A stretch of DNA of 64,000 nucleotides from an uncultured Actinomycetota bacterium (GCA_963714145.1 OY970235.1:9946137-10010136), one strand, 5' to 3'; shown: positions 32,822-44,495, counted from the first letter of the stretch. The notes: generated by a model from the sequence alone, not told the origin. Numbers and translations: made by a program.

Positions 32822-33098
32822 CCACACCTCCTGACGGGCAGCGGCCAGCCACCACCGGGCGGGCGGTCCGCCGGTGCGGGACACCGTCTGCCGCCGGCCG
32901 GACCGGTTACAAGCCTTGTGACCTGGGCTGAATAGACAGCGCCGGGTGACCGGTTTGACCGACGGATGGCGACCCGGCCAGGTCGGGTCACCGGACCGCC
33001 AGATACGTCCGTGCTGCCCGATCTCCGCTGCTACCGTTGACCTTGTTGGTTGGCGACAGGGCGTCGGGGACGGCCGACCCGCACGGGGGACGATCACC

Positions 33099-34493
33099 AT
33101 GGAAACCGGCTACGCGATGCAGATCGCCAGCGTCTACGGGACGCACTGGCGGCGGTCGACGAGCTCCACCGGCCGGCCGGCGTTCGACTTCGATCTCTGG
33201 CGGCGCTCCGGCCGGCTGGATCCGTTCGTCGAGGCACAGTTGCCGCTGGTGCTGGTGCACCGCCGGCTCGACCCGGCCCAGCTGCGATTCGCCGGCCCCG
33301 GGCCTGGCGGCGGCTCCGACCAGCCGAACCCCGCGATCACCGGTGCCGAGATCTTCATCTTCGCGCTGCCGTTCCCGGCCGACCAGGTCGTGGCCGCGCT
33401 CCGGATCGACTTCGACAGCCCCGACCTGAACCTCGACGCCTCGCTGACCAAGGGCATCCTGTCCTGCTGCACCGAGGCCGAGGTCAGCATCGGCGGGCAG
33501 GATCTGGCCAGCTACATCGACGGCCTGGCCAGGTCCGCGAAGGCGGAGAAGAAGGCGCTGCCCGGCCTGCGGGGCCGGCGCACCGGCCTGCCGCTGGAGC
33601 GGCACCACCTGGTGCTGATCCGCGAGCTGAACGACACCCGCCCGCCGGACGACGACGTGATCATGCCGATCCTGTACGGGATCGAGCCGCCGTACCGGCC
33701 GGAGTTCGTCGCGCTGCGCCGGCCCGAGGGGCTCAACCGGGAGGAGGACGCGTTCGGCGCGGTCAGCGGCACGGTCAGCTTCCTCTACGGGCACGAGGAC
33801 GACGTGGAGAAGAGCGTCTTCCTGACCACCGTGCAGGCGGTCGGCACCGCGTCCCGGTTCCAGCAGATCTGGCAGGACGCCTACCACCAGGTGCAGGAGT
33901 TCCAGACCAGCAAGCAGGCCAAGGAAACCGGCGTGCAGTTGCGCAGAGACCTGGAGACGCTGGCCGACCACATGGGCAACCTGGAGCTCGACCTGGCCTT
34001 CAGCGTGGAGACCGCGGCCGACCTCGGCCTGCAGACGTCCACGCTGAGCATCGACAGCTTCCACCACGACCTGTACGAGGTCATGCAGATCCGCACCCGG
34101 GCACACACGGTCAGCGAGATGTTCGTCCGGCTGGGCGGCAGCATCCGGTCCGAACTGACCGCGATCGAGAGCCGGGAGCGGCAGCAGGAGGAGCAGCTGC
34201 GCGAGGAACTGGAGGCGCGCCGCCGGCTGGAGCGGGAGCAGGAGGAGTCGCGCCGGCTGCATGGCGCGCTCGCGCTCGGCGTGCTCAGCTGCGTGGCCGC
34301 GCCGCTCGGCTTCTTCGTCGGGTTCTTCGGGATGAACGCCAGCCAGGTGCACCAGAACACGTCCATGTGGGACTGGCACGTCTACCACTGGGTCTACCTG
34401 ATCGCGGTGCTGATCGCGCTGATCCCGGCGGCCGCCTTCGGCGCCCTGCACGGCCCGACCCTCTGGCGCCGCTGGCGCCGCCCCGCGGTCTGA
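33099..34493 (+). CDS. Membrane protein with a CorA-like C-terminus (GFFGMN) and an unrecognised N-terminus
   Basis: Helical/coiled-coil region followed by two TM helices flanking GMN. Confidence 0.65.
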   Translation: METGYAMQIASVYGTHWRRSTSSTGRPAFDFDLWRRSGRLDPFVEAQLPLVLVHRRLDPAQLRFAGPGPGGGSDQPNPAITGAEIFIFALPFPADQVVAALRIDFDSPDLNLDASLTKGILSCCTEAEVSIGGQDLASYIDGLARSAKAEKKALPGLRGRRTGLPLERHHLVLIRELNDTRPPDDDVIMPILYGIEPPYRPEFVALRRPEGLNREEDAFGAVSGTVSFLYGHEDDVEKSVFLTTVQAVGTASRFQQIWQDAYHQVQEFQTSKQAKETGVQLRRDLETLADHMGNLELDLAFSVETAADLGLQTSTLSIDSFHHDLYEVMQIRTRAHTVSEMFVRLGGSIRSELTAIESRERQQEEQLREELEARRRLEREQEESRRLHGALALGVLSCVAAPLGFFVGFFGMNASQVHQNTSMWDWHVYHWVYLIAVLIALIPAAAFGALHGPTLWRRWRRPAV

Positions 34494-34646: not shown

Positions 34647-35351
34647 ATGGCAGTGATCCACCGAGCCTTGGACGGCCGGCAGTTCCAGCTCGCCGGCCAG
34701 TTGGATCTCGGGCAGCCGGCCACCTCGGTGCTCGGGGTGTCCGCGGCCGGCCGGCTGCACGAGTTCACCGCCGGGCTGGCGGCGCTCGGCGCCGAGGTCG
34801 CGGCCGGGCTGGGTGGCTCCGGGCCGGGCGCGGGCTTCGACGAGGAGCTGAGCTACCAGGGCGGCGCGTTGCGGATCGGCCGGCTGCACCCGTACGACCC
34901 GCAGATCAAGCTCACCGAGGATCTGCTCGTGGCCTGCTGGCAGGGCGAGCGGCACTGCCTGGTCACCCAGCTGTACGCGGCCGGCACGACCGACCTGCTC
35001 GGCCTGCTGCGCACGCTGCGGATCGAGGAGCACCCGGACGGGCTGGCCGTCCGGCCGGCCCTGGCCGGCGGCAGCGAGTTCACCGGGCCGGCCACCGTGA
35101 TCAAGCAGGTGCCGGCGCTCGGCCTGCTGGAGATGTCGCCGCTGACCAGCGAGCACGTCAAGACGCTGCCGTCCTGGGGCGGCCTGCGCACACCGGCCGG
35201 CGAGCTGTTCGCGGACAACCTCACCGACGGCAAGCCGTACTACGTGCTGGCCGCCCCGGACACCTGGACCACCCTGGTACCGGCCGCCGGCCTGGCCGGC
35301 GACCGGCTGGCCGGGCAGGTCGGCCGGCTGCGCATCCAGCTGGTCGGCTGA
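34647..35351 (+). CDS. Hypothetical soluble protein, first gene of the Mau-like operon
   Basis: ATG 34647 with AGGGAGG RBS; host-like codon use; 3 bp from the next gene. Confidence 0.7.
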   Translation: MAVIHRALDGRQFQLAGQLDLGQPATSVLGVSAAGRLHEFTAGLAALGAEVAAGLGGSGPGAGFDEELSYQGGALRIGRLHPYDPQIKLTEDLLVACWQGERHCLVTQLYAAGTTDLLGLLRTLRIEEHPDGLAVRPALAGGSEFTGPATVIKQVPALGLLEMSPLTSEHVKTLPSWGGLRTPAGELFADNLTDGKPYYVLAAPDTWTTLVPAAGLAGDRLAGQVGRLRIQLVG

Positions 35352-35354
35352 ACC

Positions 35355-36047
35355 GTGGCCGCGGTGCTCGGGAGCGTCGCCGGCTACGCGGTGCTGCTGA
35401 CGCTGGTCTGCGCCGGCGCGGGGCACCTGGCCAGGCCGGGGACGTTGCGGTCGGCGTTGGTCACGCACGGGGTGCTGCCGGTGCCGGGTCTGGTCGCGGT
35501 CGCGGTGCCGGTCGTCGAGCTCGGGCTGGGCGCCGCCGGGGTGGCCGGGCTGTTCGACCGCCCGGTGCTGCTGGCCGTCGCGCTGGCCGGCGCGGCCGTG
35601 CTGCTGGCCGGGTACGCCGGCTACGGCTGGCGGGTGCTCGCGGCCGGGGCCGGCGGGCCGTGCGGCTGTTCCCGGCATGAGCTGCCGATGTCCGGCTGGG
35701 TGCTCGCCCGGGCCGGCGGGCTCGCCGGGCTGGCGGTGCTCGGCCTGACGCTGACCGGCTCGGTGCTGTCGCCGCGGGCCGTCGACAGCCGGTTCTCCCT
35801 GGTGCTGCTGGCCGCGGCCACCTTCAGCCTGCTGCTCTGGCAGCTGCCGGCGGCCATGTACGACCCCACGCCGGCGGTAGCCGCCGGCCGGGCCACGGTG
35901 GCCGGCCCCGCCAGGCCGGCCGCCGGCCCGGCCGGCCCCGCCGGGTCTGGCGGATCCGACCGAGTGGTGGGCGGACCGGCTCTGTTGGGGATGCCGGCGC
36001 AGCCGGCCCGCGCCGGCCAGGCGGACCACCGGGAGGTGCCGGTATGA
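35355..36047 (+). CDS. MauE/DoxX-family redox-associated membrane protein
   Basis: TM helices, P..EL.LG segment and GPCGCS (MauE CGC motif). Confidence 0.82.
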   Translation: MAAVLGSVAGYAVLLTLVCAGAGHLARPGTLRSALVTHGVLPVPGLVAVAVPVVELGLGAAGVAGLFDRPVLLAVALAGAAVLLAGYAGYGWRVLAAGAGGPCGCSRHELPMSGWVLARAGGLAGLAVLGLTLTGSVLSPRAVDSRFSLVLLAAATFSLLLWQLPAAMYDPTPAVAAGRATVAGPARPAAGPAGPAGSGGSDRVVGGPALLGMPAQPARAGQADHREVPV

Positions 36048-36601
36048 GCTTCCAGACCAGCGCGCTGATCCTGAGCTGGGTGGCGATCCTGCTGCTGGCC
36101 CTGGTGGTGTCCGGGCTGGTGCGGCAGGTGCACGCCCTGTCATCCGGGCTGGTGCGGCCGGCCGGGCCGGGTGGGTCCACCGGGCCGGTCGGGCTCGCCC
36201 CGGGGGCGCTCGCACCCGGCCTCGATCTGCTCGGCACCGACCGGTCCGGGCCGGTGCTGCTGCTGTTCCTCAGCGCCGACTGCCACACCTGCTCGGCCGT
36301 CCTCACCGAGGCCGCCCACCTCACCGGCTCGGCCCACCTCACTGGCTCGGCCCACCTCACCGGGGCCGCCCAGGATGCCGGCGACCTGTCCGTCCGGGCG
36401 CTGTACGCCGGGCCGGCGCCGGCGACCGACCTGGGGATCGGCGTGTACGGCGGCCAGGCCGAGCTGTTCGAGCGGTACGACGCGATCGCGACCCCGTTCG
36501 CCGTCCTGGTCGACCCGTCCGGCCGGGTGGTCCGCTCCGAACCCGTCGGTTCCCCGGCCGCGCTACGGACCCTGCTCGACCGGGTCGTCCAGGAGGCATG
36601 A
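36044..36601 (+). CDS. MauD-like membrane-anchored thioredoxin-fold protein
   Basis: N-terminal TM ...LVRQV; GL.PG..AP; LFLSADCHTC (CxxC); TPFAVLVDPSG.V. Confidence 0.8.
   Translation: MSFQTSALILSWVAILLLALVVSGLVRQVHALSSGLVRPAGPGGSTGPVGLAPGALAPGLDLLGTDRSGPVLLLFLSADCHTCSAVLTEAAHLTGSAHLTGSAHLTGAAQDAGDLSVRALYAGPAPATDLGIGVYGGQAELFERYDAIATPFAVLVDPSGRVVRSEPVGSPAALRTLLDRVVQEA
36314..36367 (+). repeat. 3 x 18-bp in-frame repeat (AHLTGS) right after the CxxC helix
   Basis: gcccacctcaccggctcg / gcccacctcactggctcg / gcccacctcaccggggcc. Confidence 0.85.
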
Positions 36602-37554
36602 TGAACACGCTGATCCCACCGCTGCGGGCGGCTGACGCGCCGGCGGCCGAGCCGGCGGCGCCCCGGGAGCCGGCGGCGTCCCGGGCCGAGCTGCGGCCGA
36701 TCACCTGGTCACCGGTGCAGCGGCGGACCGTGCTGCGGGCCGGAGCCGCGATCGGCACCGCGATCGGGATGGCCGCGATCGGCGTGTTCCCGGCCGCCCG
36801 GCGGGCCCGCGCGGACGGCTTCGACATCTACCCGAGCTGCCCGTCCTACGCGACCGATCACAACTGCTCGCCCGGCTGCGGCCCGAGCACGATCTTCGGC
36901 GACTCCTGCAACACGTCCGGGCCGAACCTGGGCTTCCACAAGGACGACGGCGTCACCTGGATGCTGCGGCCGAACCAGTGCTTCTCGAACATGTACGACG
37001 GCTGGATCTGGCGGTACCAGAACGCCTGCGGCACCTGCGCCTGCTTCGTCGAGCGCCGCTGCCACGACGGCTACCGGATGACCAGCGCCGGCTGGGTGCG
37101 CTCGATCTGCCGGTGGAACACCGACTGCGGCTGCCAGGGCGCGGTGCCGTGGCCCACCGTCCAGCGGGGCAACTCCGGCCCGAACGTGTACGCGGTGCAG
37201 CACCTGCTGAACTTCCGCGGCGCCACCCTCACCGCGGACGGCGCGTTCGGCCCGCTCACCGAAACGGCGGTGAAGAACTTCCAGAGCGGCAACGCGCTGC
37301 CACCGACCGGCATCGTGGACACCACCACCTGGCCGGTGCTCGTGGTCACCGTGCGCAGGTCGGACAGCAACGAGGCGGTCCGCGCCGCCCAGCGCGAGCT
37401 GAACAAGTGGGGCTACCAGCTGACCGTGGACGGCGTCTTCGGCGCGCTCACCGACGGCGCGATCCGCGACTTCCAGCGGCAGAACGCGCTCACCGTGGAC
37501 GGCGTGATCGGTGCCAGCAGCTGGCGCACGCTCACCGGCGGAGCCGGCGTGTGA
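36598..37554 (+). CDS. Tat-exported protein: 12-Cys domain plus two peptidoglycan-binding (PG_binding_1) domains
   Basis: QRRTVL Tat motif and ARA cleavage site; 12 Cys in about 100 aa; two ...DG.FG..T..A...FQ....L..(T/D)G.(V/I)...(T/S)W repeats. Confidence 0.82.
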   Translation: MMNTLIPPLRAADAPAAEPAAPREPAASRAELRPITWSPVQRRTVLRAGAAIGTAIGMAAIGVFPAARRARADGFDIYPSCPSYATDHNCSPGCGPSTIFGDSCNTSGPNLGFHKDDGVTWMLRPNQCFSNMYDGWIWRYQNACGTCACFVERRCHDGYRMTSAGWVRSICRWNTDCGCQGAVPWPTVQRGNSGPNVYAVQHLLNFRGATLTADGAFGPLTETAVKNFQSGNALPPTGIVDTTTWPVLVVTVRRSDSNEAVRAAQRELNKWGYQLTVDGVFGALTDGAIRDFQRQNALTVDGVIGASSWRTLTGGAGV

Positions 37555-38354
37555 CCATTCCGGCCGGCCAGCCGGCCGAGCCGGCGGGGGAGCCGGCGCG
37601 GGCGGTGGGCCGCCGGCGGGCCGGCGTGGCGGTGTGGCGGTGGGCGACGGACCCGATCCTGCCGGTGCTGCTGCTGGCCCCGGCCGCGGTACTGGCGGCG
37701 GCCCGGGTGCCGGTGCTGACCTGGGCGGTGCTCGGCGGGCTGGCCGGCTACTCGCTGTCCGGCTCGGTTTGAACCCGTAACAGCGCGCTGGCGCTGTCCC
37801 CGCCCGGGCGGCGGGATCGGAGGTTGCCGTCGGCGCCGCTGGCGGTGTTCACGGTCGGGCTGCTGCTCGGTGGCCTGCTCAGCGGGCTGGTGCTGGCCGT
37901 GGCCGGCGGCCTGCTGGCGCCGCTGCCGCTGGCCGGCCGGCAGGTCGCCGTGCTGGCGGTCGCGCTGCTCGGGCTGCTGCGCGAGGCGGGGTTGATCGTG
38001 ATCCCGCTGCCGCAGAACAGCCGGCAGATCGGCCAGGAGGTGCTGCGCAACCCGATCCGCGGCGCGCTGCAGTTCGGCTTCGAGCTGGGCACCGGGGTGC
38101 GTACCTATGTCTCGGCCACCGCGCCGTACGTGCTGGCGCTCGGGGTGCTGCTGGCCGGTTCGCCGCGGGCCGCGGTGCTGGCCGGGCTCGGCTTCGGCGC
38201 CGGCCGGGCGCTCACCCCGCTGGTGCGCCAGGCGTCGGCCGCGCCGGCCAGTTGGGACGCGCTGCTGACCACCCGGCTGCGGGCCATCGCGCTGCTGGCC
38301 GGGGCCGCCGCCCTGATCGCGTTCGCGGTGCTGTTCGCGCTCAGTCGCCGGTGA
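37551..38354 (+). CDS. MauF-like membrane protein containing an in-frame TGA at 37770-37772 (codon 74)
   Basis: GTG 37551 overlaps the upstream stop; the frame continues through TGA into ORF 37824..38354 (LPQNSRQI...GFELGTGVRTY). Confidence 0.7.
37780..37797 (+). promoter_or_regulatory. Hairpin ACAGCGC-GCTG-GCGCTGT 7 nt after the in-frame TGA (SECIS-like or readthrough element)
   Basis: Perfect 7-bp stem, 4-nt loop starting with G; function inferred. Confidence 0.4.
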
Positions 38355-38862
38355 CGCCGTCGATCCGCTCGCGCAGCAGGTCGGCGTGCCCGTTGTGGCG
38401 GGCGTACTCCTCGATCATGTGCACATAGACCCAGCGCACGTTCATGTCCTTCTTCGAGCGCTGGTGGGTGAACGTCTCGTCCAGCGGGTGCCCGGCCGCC
38501 GCCGCCCGGGCCAGCTCCAGTTCGGCCTCGTACGCGGCGAGGTCCGCCGCGGCGTCCGCGCCGTCCACCTCGTCGAAGTCGGTGTCGTCGGTGCCGTCGC
38601 GGCTGTAGACGTAGCCGACCTGCTCGCCGCCGACCCGGCGCCGGAACCAGCCGCGTTCCACCTCGGTCATGTGCCGCACCAGGCCGAGCAGCGACATGCT
38701 GGACGGTTCGGCGCTACGCTGCTTGAGCTGCTCCGCGGTCAACCCGGCGCACTTGAACAGCAGCGTCTGCCGGTGGTAGTCGAGCCAACTGTCCAGCATC
38801 GGCCGTTCGGCTTCGACCAGTGGTGGCCGGCTGCGGGCAGTCTCCGGGACGGTCCAGGTCAT
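38341..38862 (-). CDS. DinB / DUF664 family protein
   Basis: LLGLVRHMTEVE..W, HMIEEYARHNGHADLLRE.IDG. Confidence 0.9.
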   Translation of the reverse strand: MTWTVPETARSRPPLVEAERPMLDSWLDYHRQTLLFKCAGLTAEQLKQRSAEPSSMSLLGLVRHMTEVERGWFRRRVGGEQVGYVYSRDGTDDTDFDEVDGADAAADLAAYEAELELARAAAAGHPLDETFTHQRSKKDMNVRWVYVHMIEEYARHNGHADLLRERIDGVTGD

Positions 38863-38923
38863 GCGTGGCATCCTGCCGGCTGGCGGCTCGGCCGGCACCA
38901 GGTTTTCGTGCCAGGATGCGGCC

Positions 38924-42233: not shown

Positions 42234-44495
42234 ATGGGAAAGCGACGCGGAAGCCGCGAGAAGCGGTTCGACCGCTCCAACTGGGCCAGCCTCGTCCCGT
42301 TCGGGATCGGCGAGCAGAAGCCGAACAACTACCTCGAGCTGTACAAGGCCGCCCGGGACAACCGCGATCAGCTCGGCTACGCCTGGCGGATCCTGCGCGA
42401 GGGCACCTGCGACGGCTGCGCGCTGGGCACCACCGGCCTGCGCGACTGGACGATGGACGAGGTCCACCTGTGCAACATCCGGCTGCGCCTGCTCCGGCTG
42501 AACACGATGCCGGCGCTGGACCCGGCCCTGCTGGTGGACGCGGCCGCGCTGGTCGGCAAGCGCGAATCGGAGCTGCGCGAGCTCGGCCGGATCCCGTTCC
42601 CGATGGTGCGCCGGCGCGGTGATCCGGGGTTCCACGAGGTCTCCTGGGACGAGGCGCTGGACCTCACCGCGAGCCGGGTGGCCGGCACCGCGCCGGGCCG
42701 GCTCGGCTTCTACCTGACCAGCCGGGGGATGCCGAACGAGAACTACTTCGCGGCCAGCAAGGCGGTCCGCGCGATTGGCACGAACTCGATCGACAACGCC
42801 GCCCGGGTCTGCCACTCGCCGAGCACGTTCGGGCTCAAGGGTGCGCTCGGGGTGGCCGCGACGACCTGCTCGTACACCGACTGGATCGGCTCGGATCTGG
42901 TCGTGTTCGTCGGCTCCAACGTGGCGAACAACCAGCCGGTCGCGATGAAGTACCTCTACCACGCGAAGAAGGCCGGCACCAAGGTCGCGGTCATCAACAG
43001 CTACCGCGAGCCCGGCATGGAGCGGTACTGGGTGCCGTCCAATGTGGAGAGTGCGGTCTTCGGCACCAAGGTGACCGACCGGTTCTTCGCCGTGAACACC
43101 GGCGGCGACATCGGTTTCCTGAACGGCGTGCTCAAGCACCTGCTGGCCGAGGGCTGGGTGGACGAGCGGTTCATCGCCGAGCACACCACCGGGTTCGATG
43201 AGCTGGCCGCCGCGCTGGCCGAGCAGAGCTGGGAGCGGCTGGAGGCGCTGTCCGGAGCGTCCACTTCGGACATGCGGGAGATGGCCGAACTGATCGCGGG
43301 CGCCCGCACCGCGGTGTTCGTCTGGAGCATGGGCATCACCCAGCACGAGTTCGGTGAGGACAACGTCCGGGCGATCATCAACCTGGCCCTGTCCAAGGGT
43401 TTCGTCGGCCGGGACAAGTGCGGGCTGATGCCGATCCGCGGCCACTCCGGCGTGCAGGGCGGCGCCGAGATGGGCGCGTACTCGACCGTGCTGCCCGGCG
43501 GGGTGCCGATCGACGCGGCTTCGGTGGCCCGGTTCGAGCAGCTGTGGGGGTTCCCGATCCCGGCGCAGCGCGGGATGACCGCACCGGAGATGATCGACGC
43601 GGCGCACGACAACAGCCTGGACGTGCTGGTCTCGGTCGGCGGCAACTTCCTGGACGTGCTGCCCGACCCGAAGTACTGCAAGCAGGCGCTGCAGCGCATC
43701 CCGCTGCGGGTGCACATGGACCTCTGCGTGTCCAAGCAGATGCTGGTGGACCCGGCCGACACGGTGCTGCTGCTGCCCGCGCAGACCCGGTACGAGCTGG
43801 TCGGCGGCTGCACCGAGACCACCACCGAGCGGCGGATCATCTTCAGCCCGGAGGTGGCCGGCCCGCGGATCCCGGGGGCCCGGCCGGAGTGGTGGGTGTT
43901 CGGCGAGCTGGCCGCCCGGGTCAGGCCGGAACTGGCCGCGGCGGTGCGCTATCCCGGCACGCCGGAGATCCGCGCGGACATCGCCCGCGCGGTGCCGGCG
44001 TACGCGGGCATCCAGCATCTGGCCAAGCAGGGTGACAACTTCCAGTACGGCGGCAGCCATCTGTGTTTCGGCTGGCAGTTCCCCACCCCGGACGGCAAGG
44101 CCCACTTCTCCGCGCTGACGCCGCCGGACACCGAGCGCCCGGACGGCACCTTCATGGTCGCGACCCGGCGCGGCAAGCAGTTCAACAGCATGGTGTACGA
44201 GCACCGGGACGCGCTCACCGGCGCGGAGCGGGACGCGGTGCTGATGAACAAGCTGGACGCCGCCCGGCTCGACCTCGCCGACGGCGACCGGGTGCGGCTG
44301 ACCAGCCCGGTCGGCTCGTACCAGGGCACCGTCCGGCTGGCCGCGGTGACCCCGGGGAACCTGCAGGTGCACTGGCCGGAGGGCAACGTGCTGATCGACC
44401 GGACCCGGCGCTCGCCGCAGGCCGGGATCCCCGACTACAACGCGGTCGTCACGGTCGAGCGGGTGACCACGCCGAGCGCACCGGCCCGGGTGTGA
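42234..44495 (+). CDS. FdhF/YdeP-family molybdopterin oxidoreductase (Cys ligand)
   Basis: CDGCALGT...HLC, YLTSRG..NE, NSIDNAARVCHSPS, PIRGHSGVQG, RGKQFNSM. Confidence 0.92.
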   Translation: MGKRRGSREKRFDRSNWASLVPFGIGEQKPNNYLELYKAARDNRDQLGYAWRILREGTCDGCALGTTGLRDWTMDEVHLCNIRLRLLRLNTMPALDPALLVDAAALVGKRESELRELGRIPFPMVRRRGDPGFHEVSWDEALDLTASRVAGTAPGRLGFYLTSRGMPNENYFAASKAVRAIGTNSIDNAARVCHSPSTFGLKGALGVAATTCSYTDWIGSDLVVFVGSNVANNQPVAMKYLYHAKKAGTKVAVINSYREPGMERYWVPSNVESAVFGTKVTDRFFAVNTGGDIGFLNGVLKHLLAEGWVDERFIAEHTTGFDELAAALAEQSWERLEALSGASTSDMREMAELIAGARTAVFVWSMGITQHEFGEDNVRAIINLALSKGFVGRDKCGLMPIRGHSGVQGGAEMGAYSTVLPGGVPIDAASVARFEQLWGFPIPAQRGMTAPEMIDAAHDNSLDVLVSVGGNFLDVLPDPKYCKQALQRIPLRVHMDLCVSKQMLVDPADTVLLLPAQTRYELVGGCTETTTERRIIFSPEVAGPRIPGARPEWWVFGELAARVRPELAAAVRYPGTPEIRADIARAVPAYAGIQHLAKQGDNFQYGGSHLCFGWQFPTPDGKAHFSALTPPDTERPDGTFMVATRRGKQFNSMVYEHRDALTGAERDAVLMNKLDAARLDLADGDRVRLTSPVGSYQGTVRLAAVTPGNLQVHWPEGNVLIDRTRRSPQAGIPDYNAVVTVERVTTPSAPARV

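Follow-up and report, generated by a model that had tools for sequence, protein, structure and literature searches.

The window, a stretch of 64,000 nucleotides (nt) from an uncultured Actinomycetota bacterium (GCA_963714145.1, OY970235.1:9946137-10010136), contains at positions 34647-38354 a five-gene operon whose last gene carries an in-frame UGA codon. Comparison of related loci predicts that this gene, here named SecMauF, encodes a selenocysteine (Sec)-containing membrane protein related to MauF of the methylamine dehydrogenase (mau) clusters. It is preceded by a gene for a soluble protein (hyp), by homologues of mauE and mauD, and by a gene for a cysteine-rich cargo with a candidate signal peptide of the twin-arginine translocation (Tat) pathway. 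The operon probably encodes a dedicated extracytoplasmic thiol/selenol-disulfide relay that matures its Tat-exported client. No description of a Sec-containing MauF or of this operon was found in the open literature, and SecMauF is absent from the bacterial selenoprotein surveys that we examined there. The genes, with coordinates taken from the listing of open reading frames (ORFs) and from direct reading of the sequence, are as follows.

34647-35351, plus strand: hyp, first gene of the operon
35355-36047, plus strand: MauE, after a 3-nt gap
36044-36601, plus strand: MauD-like protein with a thioredoxin fold and CHTC, 4-nt overlap with MauE
36598-37554, plus strand: cargo (Tat, Cys-rich, peptidoglycan (PG)-binding), 4-nt overlap with the MauD-like gene
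37551-38354, plus strand: SecMauF membrane protein, 4-nt GTGA overlap with the cargo gene

Related loci were collected by a scan of a one-genome-per-species collection, which yielded 229 confirmed matching stretches. Three neighbourhoods were analysed, together with 80 further loci kept from these matches, and the counts of gene order and of linkage to sel genes given below cover 85 related loci. Read through the TGA, SecMauF is a polytopic membrane protein of 267 amino acids (aa), and the sequence across the TGA is ...GYSLSGSV, the TGA itself, then TRNSALALSPPGRR... The codon and the two hairpins that follow it are listed here.

37770-37772, plus strand: in-frame UGA at SecMauF residue 74, candidate Sec codon
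37781-37796, plus strand: hairpin 1, CAGCGC-GCUG-GCGCUG, which folds in most loci
37799-37815, plus strand: hairpin 2, candidate SECIS (selenocysteine insertion sequence) apical stem-loop, at +29 to +45 from the UGA

The TGA is present in 86/86 loci of the main family and is never replaced by TAA, TAG or a cysteine codon; it lies within the motif G[YF][STA]LSGSV-U-T[RH]NS. Seven divergent paralogues, among them a second copy in the genome of the window, retain it as well (7/7, in SGS[TV]-U-SxNS). Thus all 93 of 93 loci keep the TGA, with a joint motif LSGS[VT]-U-[ST]xNS and amino acid conservation on both sides. From the TGA to the next start there are 17 codons, and the protein sequence that they encode (TRNSAxALxSPGWR) shows strong conservation. 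There is no conserved cysteine in SecMauF besides the position of the Sec residue, and 30 of the 86 proteins contain no cysteine at all.

Gene callers split SecMauF at every locus into pieces of approximately 50-70 aa and 150-190 aa, and all public calls of the gene are truncated "hypothetical proteins". When 1.84 billion representative proteins were searched with a profile, 1473 clusters scored at E up to 1e-3, of which 613 reached E up to 1e-10. Of the 150 best clusters nearly all begin just after the Sec position and are thus truncated gene calls. SecMauF has no match in Pfam or NCBIfam.

Both helices downstream of the UGA are maintained in register: 89% of cells are paired, a share that drops to 31-52% if the 3' partners are slid. 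The covariation was assessed on 31 distinct sequences, paralogues included, and the observed score was reached by none of 500 shuffles. In hairpin 2, 94% of cells are paired and four of the seven pairs are changed on both sides, with compensatory changes in the loci L097 and L100. Its apical loop is G-rich (CGGGC in the window; AGGUU, GGU, GUC and CGGGU elsewhere) and its distance from the UGA, approximately 33 nt, falls within the 16-37 nt usual for bacterial SECIS elements in the bSECISearch model. Support for hairpin 1 is weaker than for hairpin 2: 84% of its cells are paired, but none of its pairs shows a change in both partners, and in the paralogues its register is shifted. An Rfam and tRNA scan of the window found nothing, and Rfam has no family for these hairpins.

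The genome of the window encodes tRNA-Sec, SelA, SelB and SelD. At 35 of 85 loci selD, selA or selB lies within 10 kb of the cassette, and at 32 loci tRNA-Sec does; at several, selD directly precedes hyp in the same orientation. Of 401 genomes in a class-wide sample, six carry the Sec form and all six have SelA (6/6, against a background of approximately 110/401). Among Streptomyces (n=151) there are ten carriers, nine of them with SelA (background 27/151); the tenth is a fragmented assembly. In eight of the Streptomyces carriers SelA is 2-10 kb from SecMauF. As a general rule, the idea that the Sec machinery serves SecMauF exclusively had to be rejected, since most SelA-positive genomes (of the approximately 110 in the class-wide sample and the 27 in Streptomyces) lack the cassette.

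The carriers differ in their other candidate selenoproteins. Those from Micromonospora and Actinoallomurus have one molybdopterin oxidoreductase with an in-frame TGA each (G403:C1:6395480-6396820 and G404:C1:4914740-4916149), which are probably Sec-containing formate dehydrogenases. No molybdopterin enzyme with an in-frame stop was found in the genome of the window, two Streptomyces, one Stackebrandtia and one Actinophytocola. The genome of the window encodes six molybdopterin enzymes, none of them interrupted by a stop (one is in the window at ~42588-43916), and no obvious other selenoprotein gene is seen next to its sel genes. Thus SecMauF may be the main or the only selenoprotein of some carriers.

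The relationship to MauF is seen at the profile level. The mau reference was the cluster on plasmid 1 of Paracoccus denitrificans PD1222 (locus L092), which was reached through MauA; the MauE of the window, used as a query among plasmids, gave no match to this cluster. The SecMauF profile aligns with P. denitrificans MauF over 167 columns (hhalign probability 90.1%, E 1.6e-6), and the Sec residue is aligned with the only conserved cysteine of MauF (SGSVUTRNS versus WSPCGYSS). This upholds the identification of gene 5 as a MauF-like membrane protein, made earlier from the window sequence without database searches (hereafter, the sequence-only reading), with the amendment that it is a candidate selenoprotein. 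MauF itself matches nothing in NCBIfam and has no curated hidden Markov model. Cysteine forms are rare: they were seen in the variants P0340 and P0250 of the Sec-type family and in the genome G199. The latter is the Cys-form genome of the class-wide sample and lacks SelA. Its Cys-type MauF homologue (locus L099, G199:C24, 7709-8635) has the motif TWSPCGAS and 33% identity to Paracoccus MauF, and a MauD-like ORF lies close to it on the opposite strand.

The AlphaFold2 (AF2) model of SecMauF is all-helical, with a mean predicted local distance difference test score (pLDDT) of 89 and a predicted template modelling score (pTM) of 0.86, and it has no significant neighbour in the PDB. Assignment to the CcdA, DsbD or LysE types was rejected: there is no Pfam match (PF02683 included), and Foldseek points to CcdA only weakly. 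By the positive-inside rule, with the RRDRR loop at residues 87-91, Sec74 is predicted to be near the cytoplasmic end of its helix.

The order hyp-MauE-MauD-cargo-SecMauF is identical in all 85 related loci. The junctions overlap or abut with occasional exceptions, those longer than 10 nt being MauD-to-cargo in 6/86 and cargo-to-SecMauF in 1/86. The carriers belong to Micromonospora, Streptomyces, Kitasatospora, Actinophytocola, Stackebrandtia, Rhizocola, Actinoallomurus and Actinomadura. This arrangement is far beyond chance; it is one translationally coupled operon, found in hundreds of actinomycete species. Five coupled genes at 34647-38354 had already been proposed in the sequence-only reading, and all of them were found on the plus strand with one 3-nt gap and three 4-nt overlaps. 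The genes and their coordinates stand, whereas gene 5 is not an uninterrupted ORF, having the TGA at 37770-37772. The co-conservation of hyp, mauE, mauD, a Tat-exported Cys-rich protein and mauF, which that reading had named as a check, turned out to be complete across the related loci. Neither the operon of the window (by Pfam) nor the called genes of the three neighbourhoods include MauA, MauB or MauG, and a tblastn search with the Paracoccus proteins found none of these, nor amicyanin, in eight paralogue loci; for MauB, MauG and amicyanin this agrees with the sequence-only reading.

The first gene, hyp, encodes a soluble protein of 234 aa with no signal peptide and is first in the operon at every locus that extends far enough. 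It has no relatives in Pfam, NCBIfam or the PDB, and MauJ was excluded as a candidate (hhalign probability 0.2%). The invariant residues include H5, D9, D20, E39, W98, E128, K153, E186 and D190.

For the two helper proteins, the assignments of the sequence-only reading stand as homology. MauE matches PF07291 with 54.8 bits, above the gathering cut-off of 27 (E 1.5e-14, profile positions 3-127 of 128). It has a CXC loop motif, GPCGCS in the window, and the CXC is kept in 78/78 homologues; the corresponding sequence of Paracoccus MauE is DCGCF. The MauE of the window is approximately 40 aa longer than its homologues (230 versus ~190 aa), the excess being a Pro-, Ala- and Gly-rich tail at the C terminus (35900-36047). 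The MauD-like protein carries a membrane anchor at its N terminus; its active site is CHTC and its cis-Pro loop ATPF. Its homology to Paracoccus MauD is full-length, with 152 columns aligned, the membrane anchor included (hhalign probability 97.8%, E 7.7e-13), and the CxxC is present in all homologues. In the window, residues ~93-113 of the MauD-like protein (36320-36380) form an insertion, HLTGSAHLTGSAHLTGAAQ, in which a hexapeptide is repeated three times; it is missing from all aligned homologues and implies an 18-nt tandem repeat.

The cargo has three parts.

36598-36813, plus strand: Tat signal peptide, cargo residues 1-72, twin arginine at residues 42-43, preceded by LDxVPxLRG in the alignment
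cargo residues ~73-190: Cys-rich domain with 12 Cys, 10 of them invariant
cargo residues ~190-312: two PG_binding_1 domains (PF01471, E 1e-32)

The signal peptide reads QRRTVLRAG...ARA|DG, with the twin arginine, a hydrophobic region and an AxA cleavage site, and the Pfam family TAT_signal (PF10518) matches 11 of 45 cargo homologues. Conserved motifs of the cargo are CSPGCGPS, YDGWxW, RCHDG and ICR. In its domain W67, W69, D65, D88 and H45 are invariant alongside the 10 Cys, and H87 and W97 are nearly so. At least 440 homologous protein clusters were found among the top 8000 candidates scored, from Micromonospora, Streptomyces, Actinophytocola, Stackebrandtia, Actinokineospora and others. The conserved core is a domain of approximately 115 aa with 10 Cys, and not the PG-binding domains: the cargos of Actinoallomurus, Actinomadura and Streptosporangiaceae stop after the Cys-rich domain. 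Thus the PG-binding domains are an optional addition. A Tat-exported protein with 12 Cys and two PG-binding domains, as described in the sequence-only reading, is indeed what the window encodes, judging from the predicted signal; however, "wall-anchored" does not define the cargo.

The N domain of the cargo has no relatives beyond those due to the PG-binding domains and the signal peptide when searched against Pfam to E 10, with 45 homologues against Pfam, and as a profile against the PDB. On this basis we regard it as a new Cys-rich domain. MauA was tried and rejected, as there is no match to PF02975 (the window at E up to 10, the 45 homologues at E up to 5); by hhalign the signal peptides alone align, with a probability of 5%.

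A second, divergent operon is present in the genome of the window at C1:~2525400-2527940 (locus L093, 6397-8937). It consists of hyp2, MauD2 (CGLC), cargo2 and SecMauF2, and has no MauE. Cargo2 is a Tat Cys-rich protein of 189 aa that has no PG-binding domains. The TGA of SecMauF2 is at L093 8350-8352, in the motif GFATSGST-U-SRNSA. The other paralogue loci retain hyp, the MauD-like protein and SecMauF, and their cargos are again Cys-rich Tat proteins with common motifs NAW[RTE]W, RC[SH]DG and [IV]CR, and [LI]Dx[IVL]P before the twin arginine. The cargo thus forms a single superfamily co-evolving with the helpers rather than a freely exchangeable client. Of the conserved gene order with variable cargo that the sequence-only reading proposed to look for, the order holds, but the cargo varies within one superfamily of Cys/Trp-rich domains.

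The closest known system is the mau cluster (mauRFBEDACJGMN in Paracoccus denitrificans). Homologues of MauE, MauD and MauF are all present here, with the CXC in MauE, the CxxC and membrane anchor in MauD, and a single redox residue at the same position of MauF. The order mauE-mauD-client is common to both, and in both the client is a small Tat domain with many Cys: 12 here and 12 in MauA. The methylamine dehydrogenase light chain has six disulfides. The differences are considerable. Sec stands here in place of the Cys (WSPCG) of MauF; the client is not detectably MauA and is often fused to PG-binding domains; MauB, MauG, amicyanin, MauJ, MauM and MauN are missing. An unrelated cytoplasmic hyp is always first, and the MauF homologue is last whereas in mau it is first. 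Finally, the hosts are aerobic actinomycetes and not methylotrophic Proteobacteria.

Among known bacterial selenoproteins (thioredoxin-like, AhpD-like, DsbA-like, FdhA), SecMauF resembles the others in having a Sec/Cys pair of forms at a redox site, a stem-loop no more than ~30 nt after the UGA whose apical loop contains G, and a predicted dependence on SelA, SelB, SelD and tRNA-Sec. Unlike them, it is an integral membrane protein, exists almost solely in the Sec form within its subfamily, and occurs in aerobic high-GC actinomycetes, often adjoining the sel island. With CcdA and DsbD it shares the polytopic helical architecture and a redox residue located where a transmembrane helix is interrupted, and the SPC motif of MauF resembles the active-site motif of CcdA; however, SecMauF has one redox residue and not two, does not match PF02683, and has template modelling (TM) scores of 0.33-0.38.

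MauE homologues were reported in a 2026 preprint to substitute for DsbB in E. coli, with the CXC as the active site and MauD proposed as a DsbA-like partner (bioRxiv 10.64898/2026.03.05.709764). That system resembles ours in having a MauE with the CXC loop and a thioredoxin-fold partner outside methylamine dehydrogenase clusters. On the other hand, the preprint is silent on MauF, selenocysteine and Actinobacteria, and here MauE is dispensable in the second operon, whereas the MauD-like protein and SecMauF are always kept.

The Mau-helper homologies and the co-conservation agree with the dedicated redox maturation that the sequence-only reading had suggested; that redox chemistry matures the cargo we infer. 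The comparisons themselves establish which genes are present, their homologies, the signals of Sec recoding, the co-conservation and the linkage to sel genes. For the catalytic steps, the way in which electrons flow, the role of hyp and what the client does, we propose the following. Sec would be inserted at the UGA (37770-37772) by means of the downstream hairpin and the SelA, SelB, SelD and tRNA-Sec of the genome. MauE, acting like DsbB, would oxidise MauD, and MauD, as a DsbA-like carrier, would introduce the five or six disulfides of the client. This oxidising branch is suggested by the DsbB-like role reported in the preprint, together with the CXC in 78/78 MauE homologues and the CxxC in all MauD-like ones. 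SecMauF would contribute a single, highly nucleophilic chalcogen; through a transient selenenylsulfide with MauD or the client, it would resolve or isomerise disulfides that are wrong or mixed. It may be able to partner MauD alone, since the second operon, which has no MauE, keeps just those two helpers. Hyp would be a cytoplasmic factor similar to Tat chaperones that most likely binds the conserved motif before the twin arginine of the client. In the window, the client would be tethered to peptidoglycan via its two PG_binding_1 domains.

Several observations weigh against such a relay. Every step of it is drawn from sequence and models. Proteins exported by Tat are normally already folded; should the client fold in the cytoplasm, the formation of disulfides outside would come late or be unnecessary. 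A single chalcogen is unable to shuttle two electrons in the way of the Cys pair of CcdA or DsbD. Sec74, placed near the cytoplasmic face, is a poor fit with direct extracytoplasmic contact with MauD. The MauD-like protein scores 11 bits against the equivalog family TIGR02661, far below the cut-off of 188.6, and thus is not a MauD equivalog. The AF2 model of the cargo is of low confidence (pLDDT 50), so that the disulfide pairing cannot be read from it and its Foldseek matches carry no meaning. For SecMauF, the Foldseek match of highest probability is CcdA (5vkv), a weak one (probability 0.41, TM 0.33/0.38, E ~1). Finally, the function of MauE is taken from one preprint, on homologues from other phyla (bioRxiv 10.64898/2026.03.05.709764).

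The main rival, which we consider unlikely, is that the Cys/Trp-rich domain acquires a covalent feature beside or instead of disulfides. Candidates are a quinone derived from Trp or Cys, or else a cross-link of the thioether or selenoether type; the light subunits that carry tryptophan tryptophylquinone or cysteine tryptophylquinone are the precedents. Hyp would then be a cytoplasmic modifying enzyme, SecMauF would provide the catalytic chalcogen, and the client would be a redox enzyme with no heavy chain. Indeed, invariant Trp, Asp and His stand next to the 10 Cys of the domain, the helper proteins and the long Tat signal are common to MauA, and Tat export suits substrates modified before export. 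The invariant His, Asp, Glu and Lys of hyp are enzyme-like, although it has no recognisable catalytic fold. The motif before the twin arginine resembles a recognition leader; however, outside the signal peptide the cargo is unlike MauA and PF02975, and its model is too poor to reveal a cofactor site. The called genes of the three neighbourhoods include no MauG, radical-SAM or flavoprotein maturase, and tblastn with the Paracoccus Mau proteins found no Mau maturase in the paralogue loci.

It is rather unlikely, in our opinion, that MauF-type proteins as a whole are membrane (seleno)thiol catalysts which, together with hyp, install a covalent modification in a widespread family of Tat-exported Cys/Trp-rich domains. 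To our knowledge, no function has been assigned to MauF since the sequencing of the mau clusters. If this proposal were true, the client would be a new kind of extracellular enzyme, with a redox role or one on the cell wall, that needs selenium to mature, and the sel island of the Streptomyces, Actinophytocola and Stackebrandtia carriers would mainly serve the cassette.

Another explanation is that SecMauF is a CcdA-like reductive conduit, which passes cytoplasmic reducing power to MauD so that some Cys of the client are kept reduced, for instance to serve as ligands of a metal or substrate, or its disulfides are isomerised, with no oxidation of the client. We regard this as distinctly improbable. 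The best fold match, albeit weak, is CcdA (5vkv, 0.41), the SPC motif of MauF is CcdA-like, Sec is placed toward the cytoplasmic face beside a positive loop, and the second operon lacks MauE. However, CcdA needs a Cys pair and SecMauF has one redox residue, PF02683 gives no match, and the operon encodes no cytoplasmic thioredoxin partner. The role of MauE itself has been read both ways: an earlier report that it may act as a reductase is cited in the preprint, whose own complementation of the DsbB defect implies oxidation (bioRxiv 10.64898/2026.03.05.709764).

The weakest alternative, that the TGA is a true stop and the locus encodes no selenoprotein but two small membrane proteins (73 and ~176 aa), or is a decayed gene, agrees with the split in each public gene call and with the absence of an Rfam SECIS family match, but is hardly credible given a TGA that is never TAA or TAG in 93 loci, strong protein conservation between it and the next start, its alignment with the Cys of MauF and of the rare Cys variants, the co-occurrence and physical linkage with the Sec machinery, and the covarying hairpin 3' of it.

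With the thiol/selenol-disulfide relay as the preferred reading, the candidate SecMauF would add a family of integral membrane selenoproteins to aerobic high-GC actinomycetes, Streptomyces and Micromonospora included. The near-exclusive use of Sec at the position of the conserved Cys of MauF argues that this residue is catalytic and redox-active. As a clue to what MauF does, this would be the first concrete one, and it is relevant to the maturation of the methylamine dehydrogenase light chain. It also offers a candidate explanation for actinomycete sel islands in genomes where no Sec-containing formate dehydrogenase was found (that of the window, two Streptomyces, Stackebrandtia and Actinophytocola). 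The system, which is tractable and consists of a client with three or four helpers and a dependence on selenium, may provide, in Streptomyces amenable to genetics, a route to a dedicated oxidative-folding pathway and to the function of a widespread Cys-rich wall-associated domain.

Several neighbouring genes were recorded. A convergent gene of the DinB/mycothiol-S-transferase family (PF04978, E 3e-47) is located at 38341-38898 on the minus strand and has 14 nt in common with the 3' end of SecMauF. Directly upstream of the operon (32946-34493, plus strand) is a gene for a protein of 515 aa with weak matches to a CorA-like C-terminal two-helix end (E 0.009) and to ATP-grasp (E 0.003); at other loci it is outside the conserved cassette. 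In Streptomyces niveus (locus L001, 8106-10852) and at equivalent Streptomyces loci, two more genes connected with the wall separate the cassette from the selD/tRNA-Sec/selA/selB island. In L001, one of them encodes an Rv2525c-like glycoside-hydrolase-like protein with PG_binding_1, and the other a protein with two PG_binding_1 domains and Peptidase_M74. These genes beside the Streptomyces cassettes hint at a context of cell-wall remodelling.

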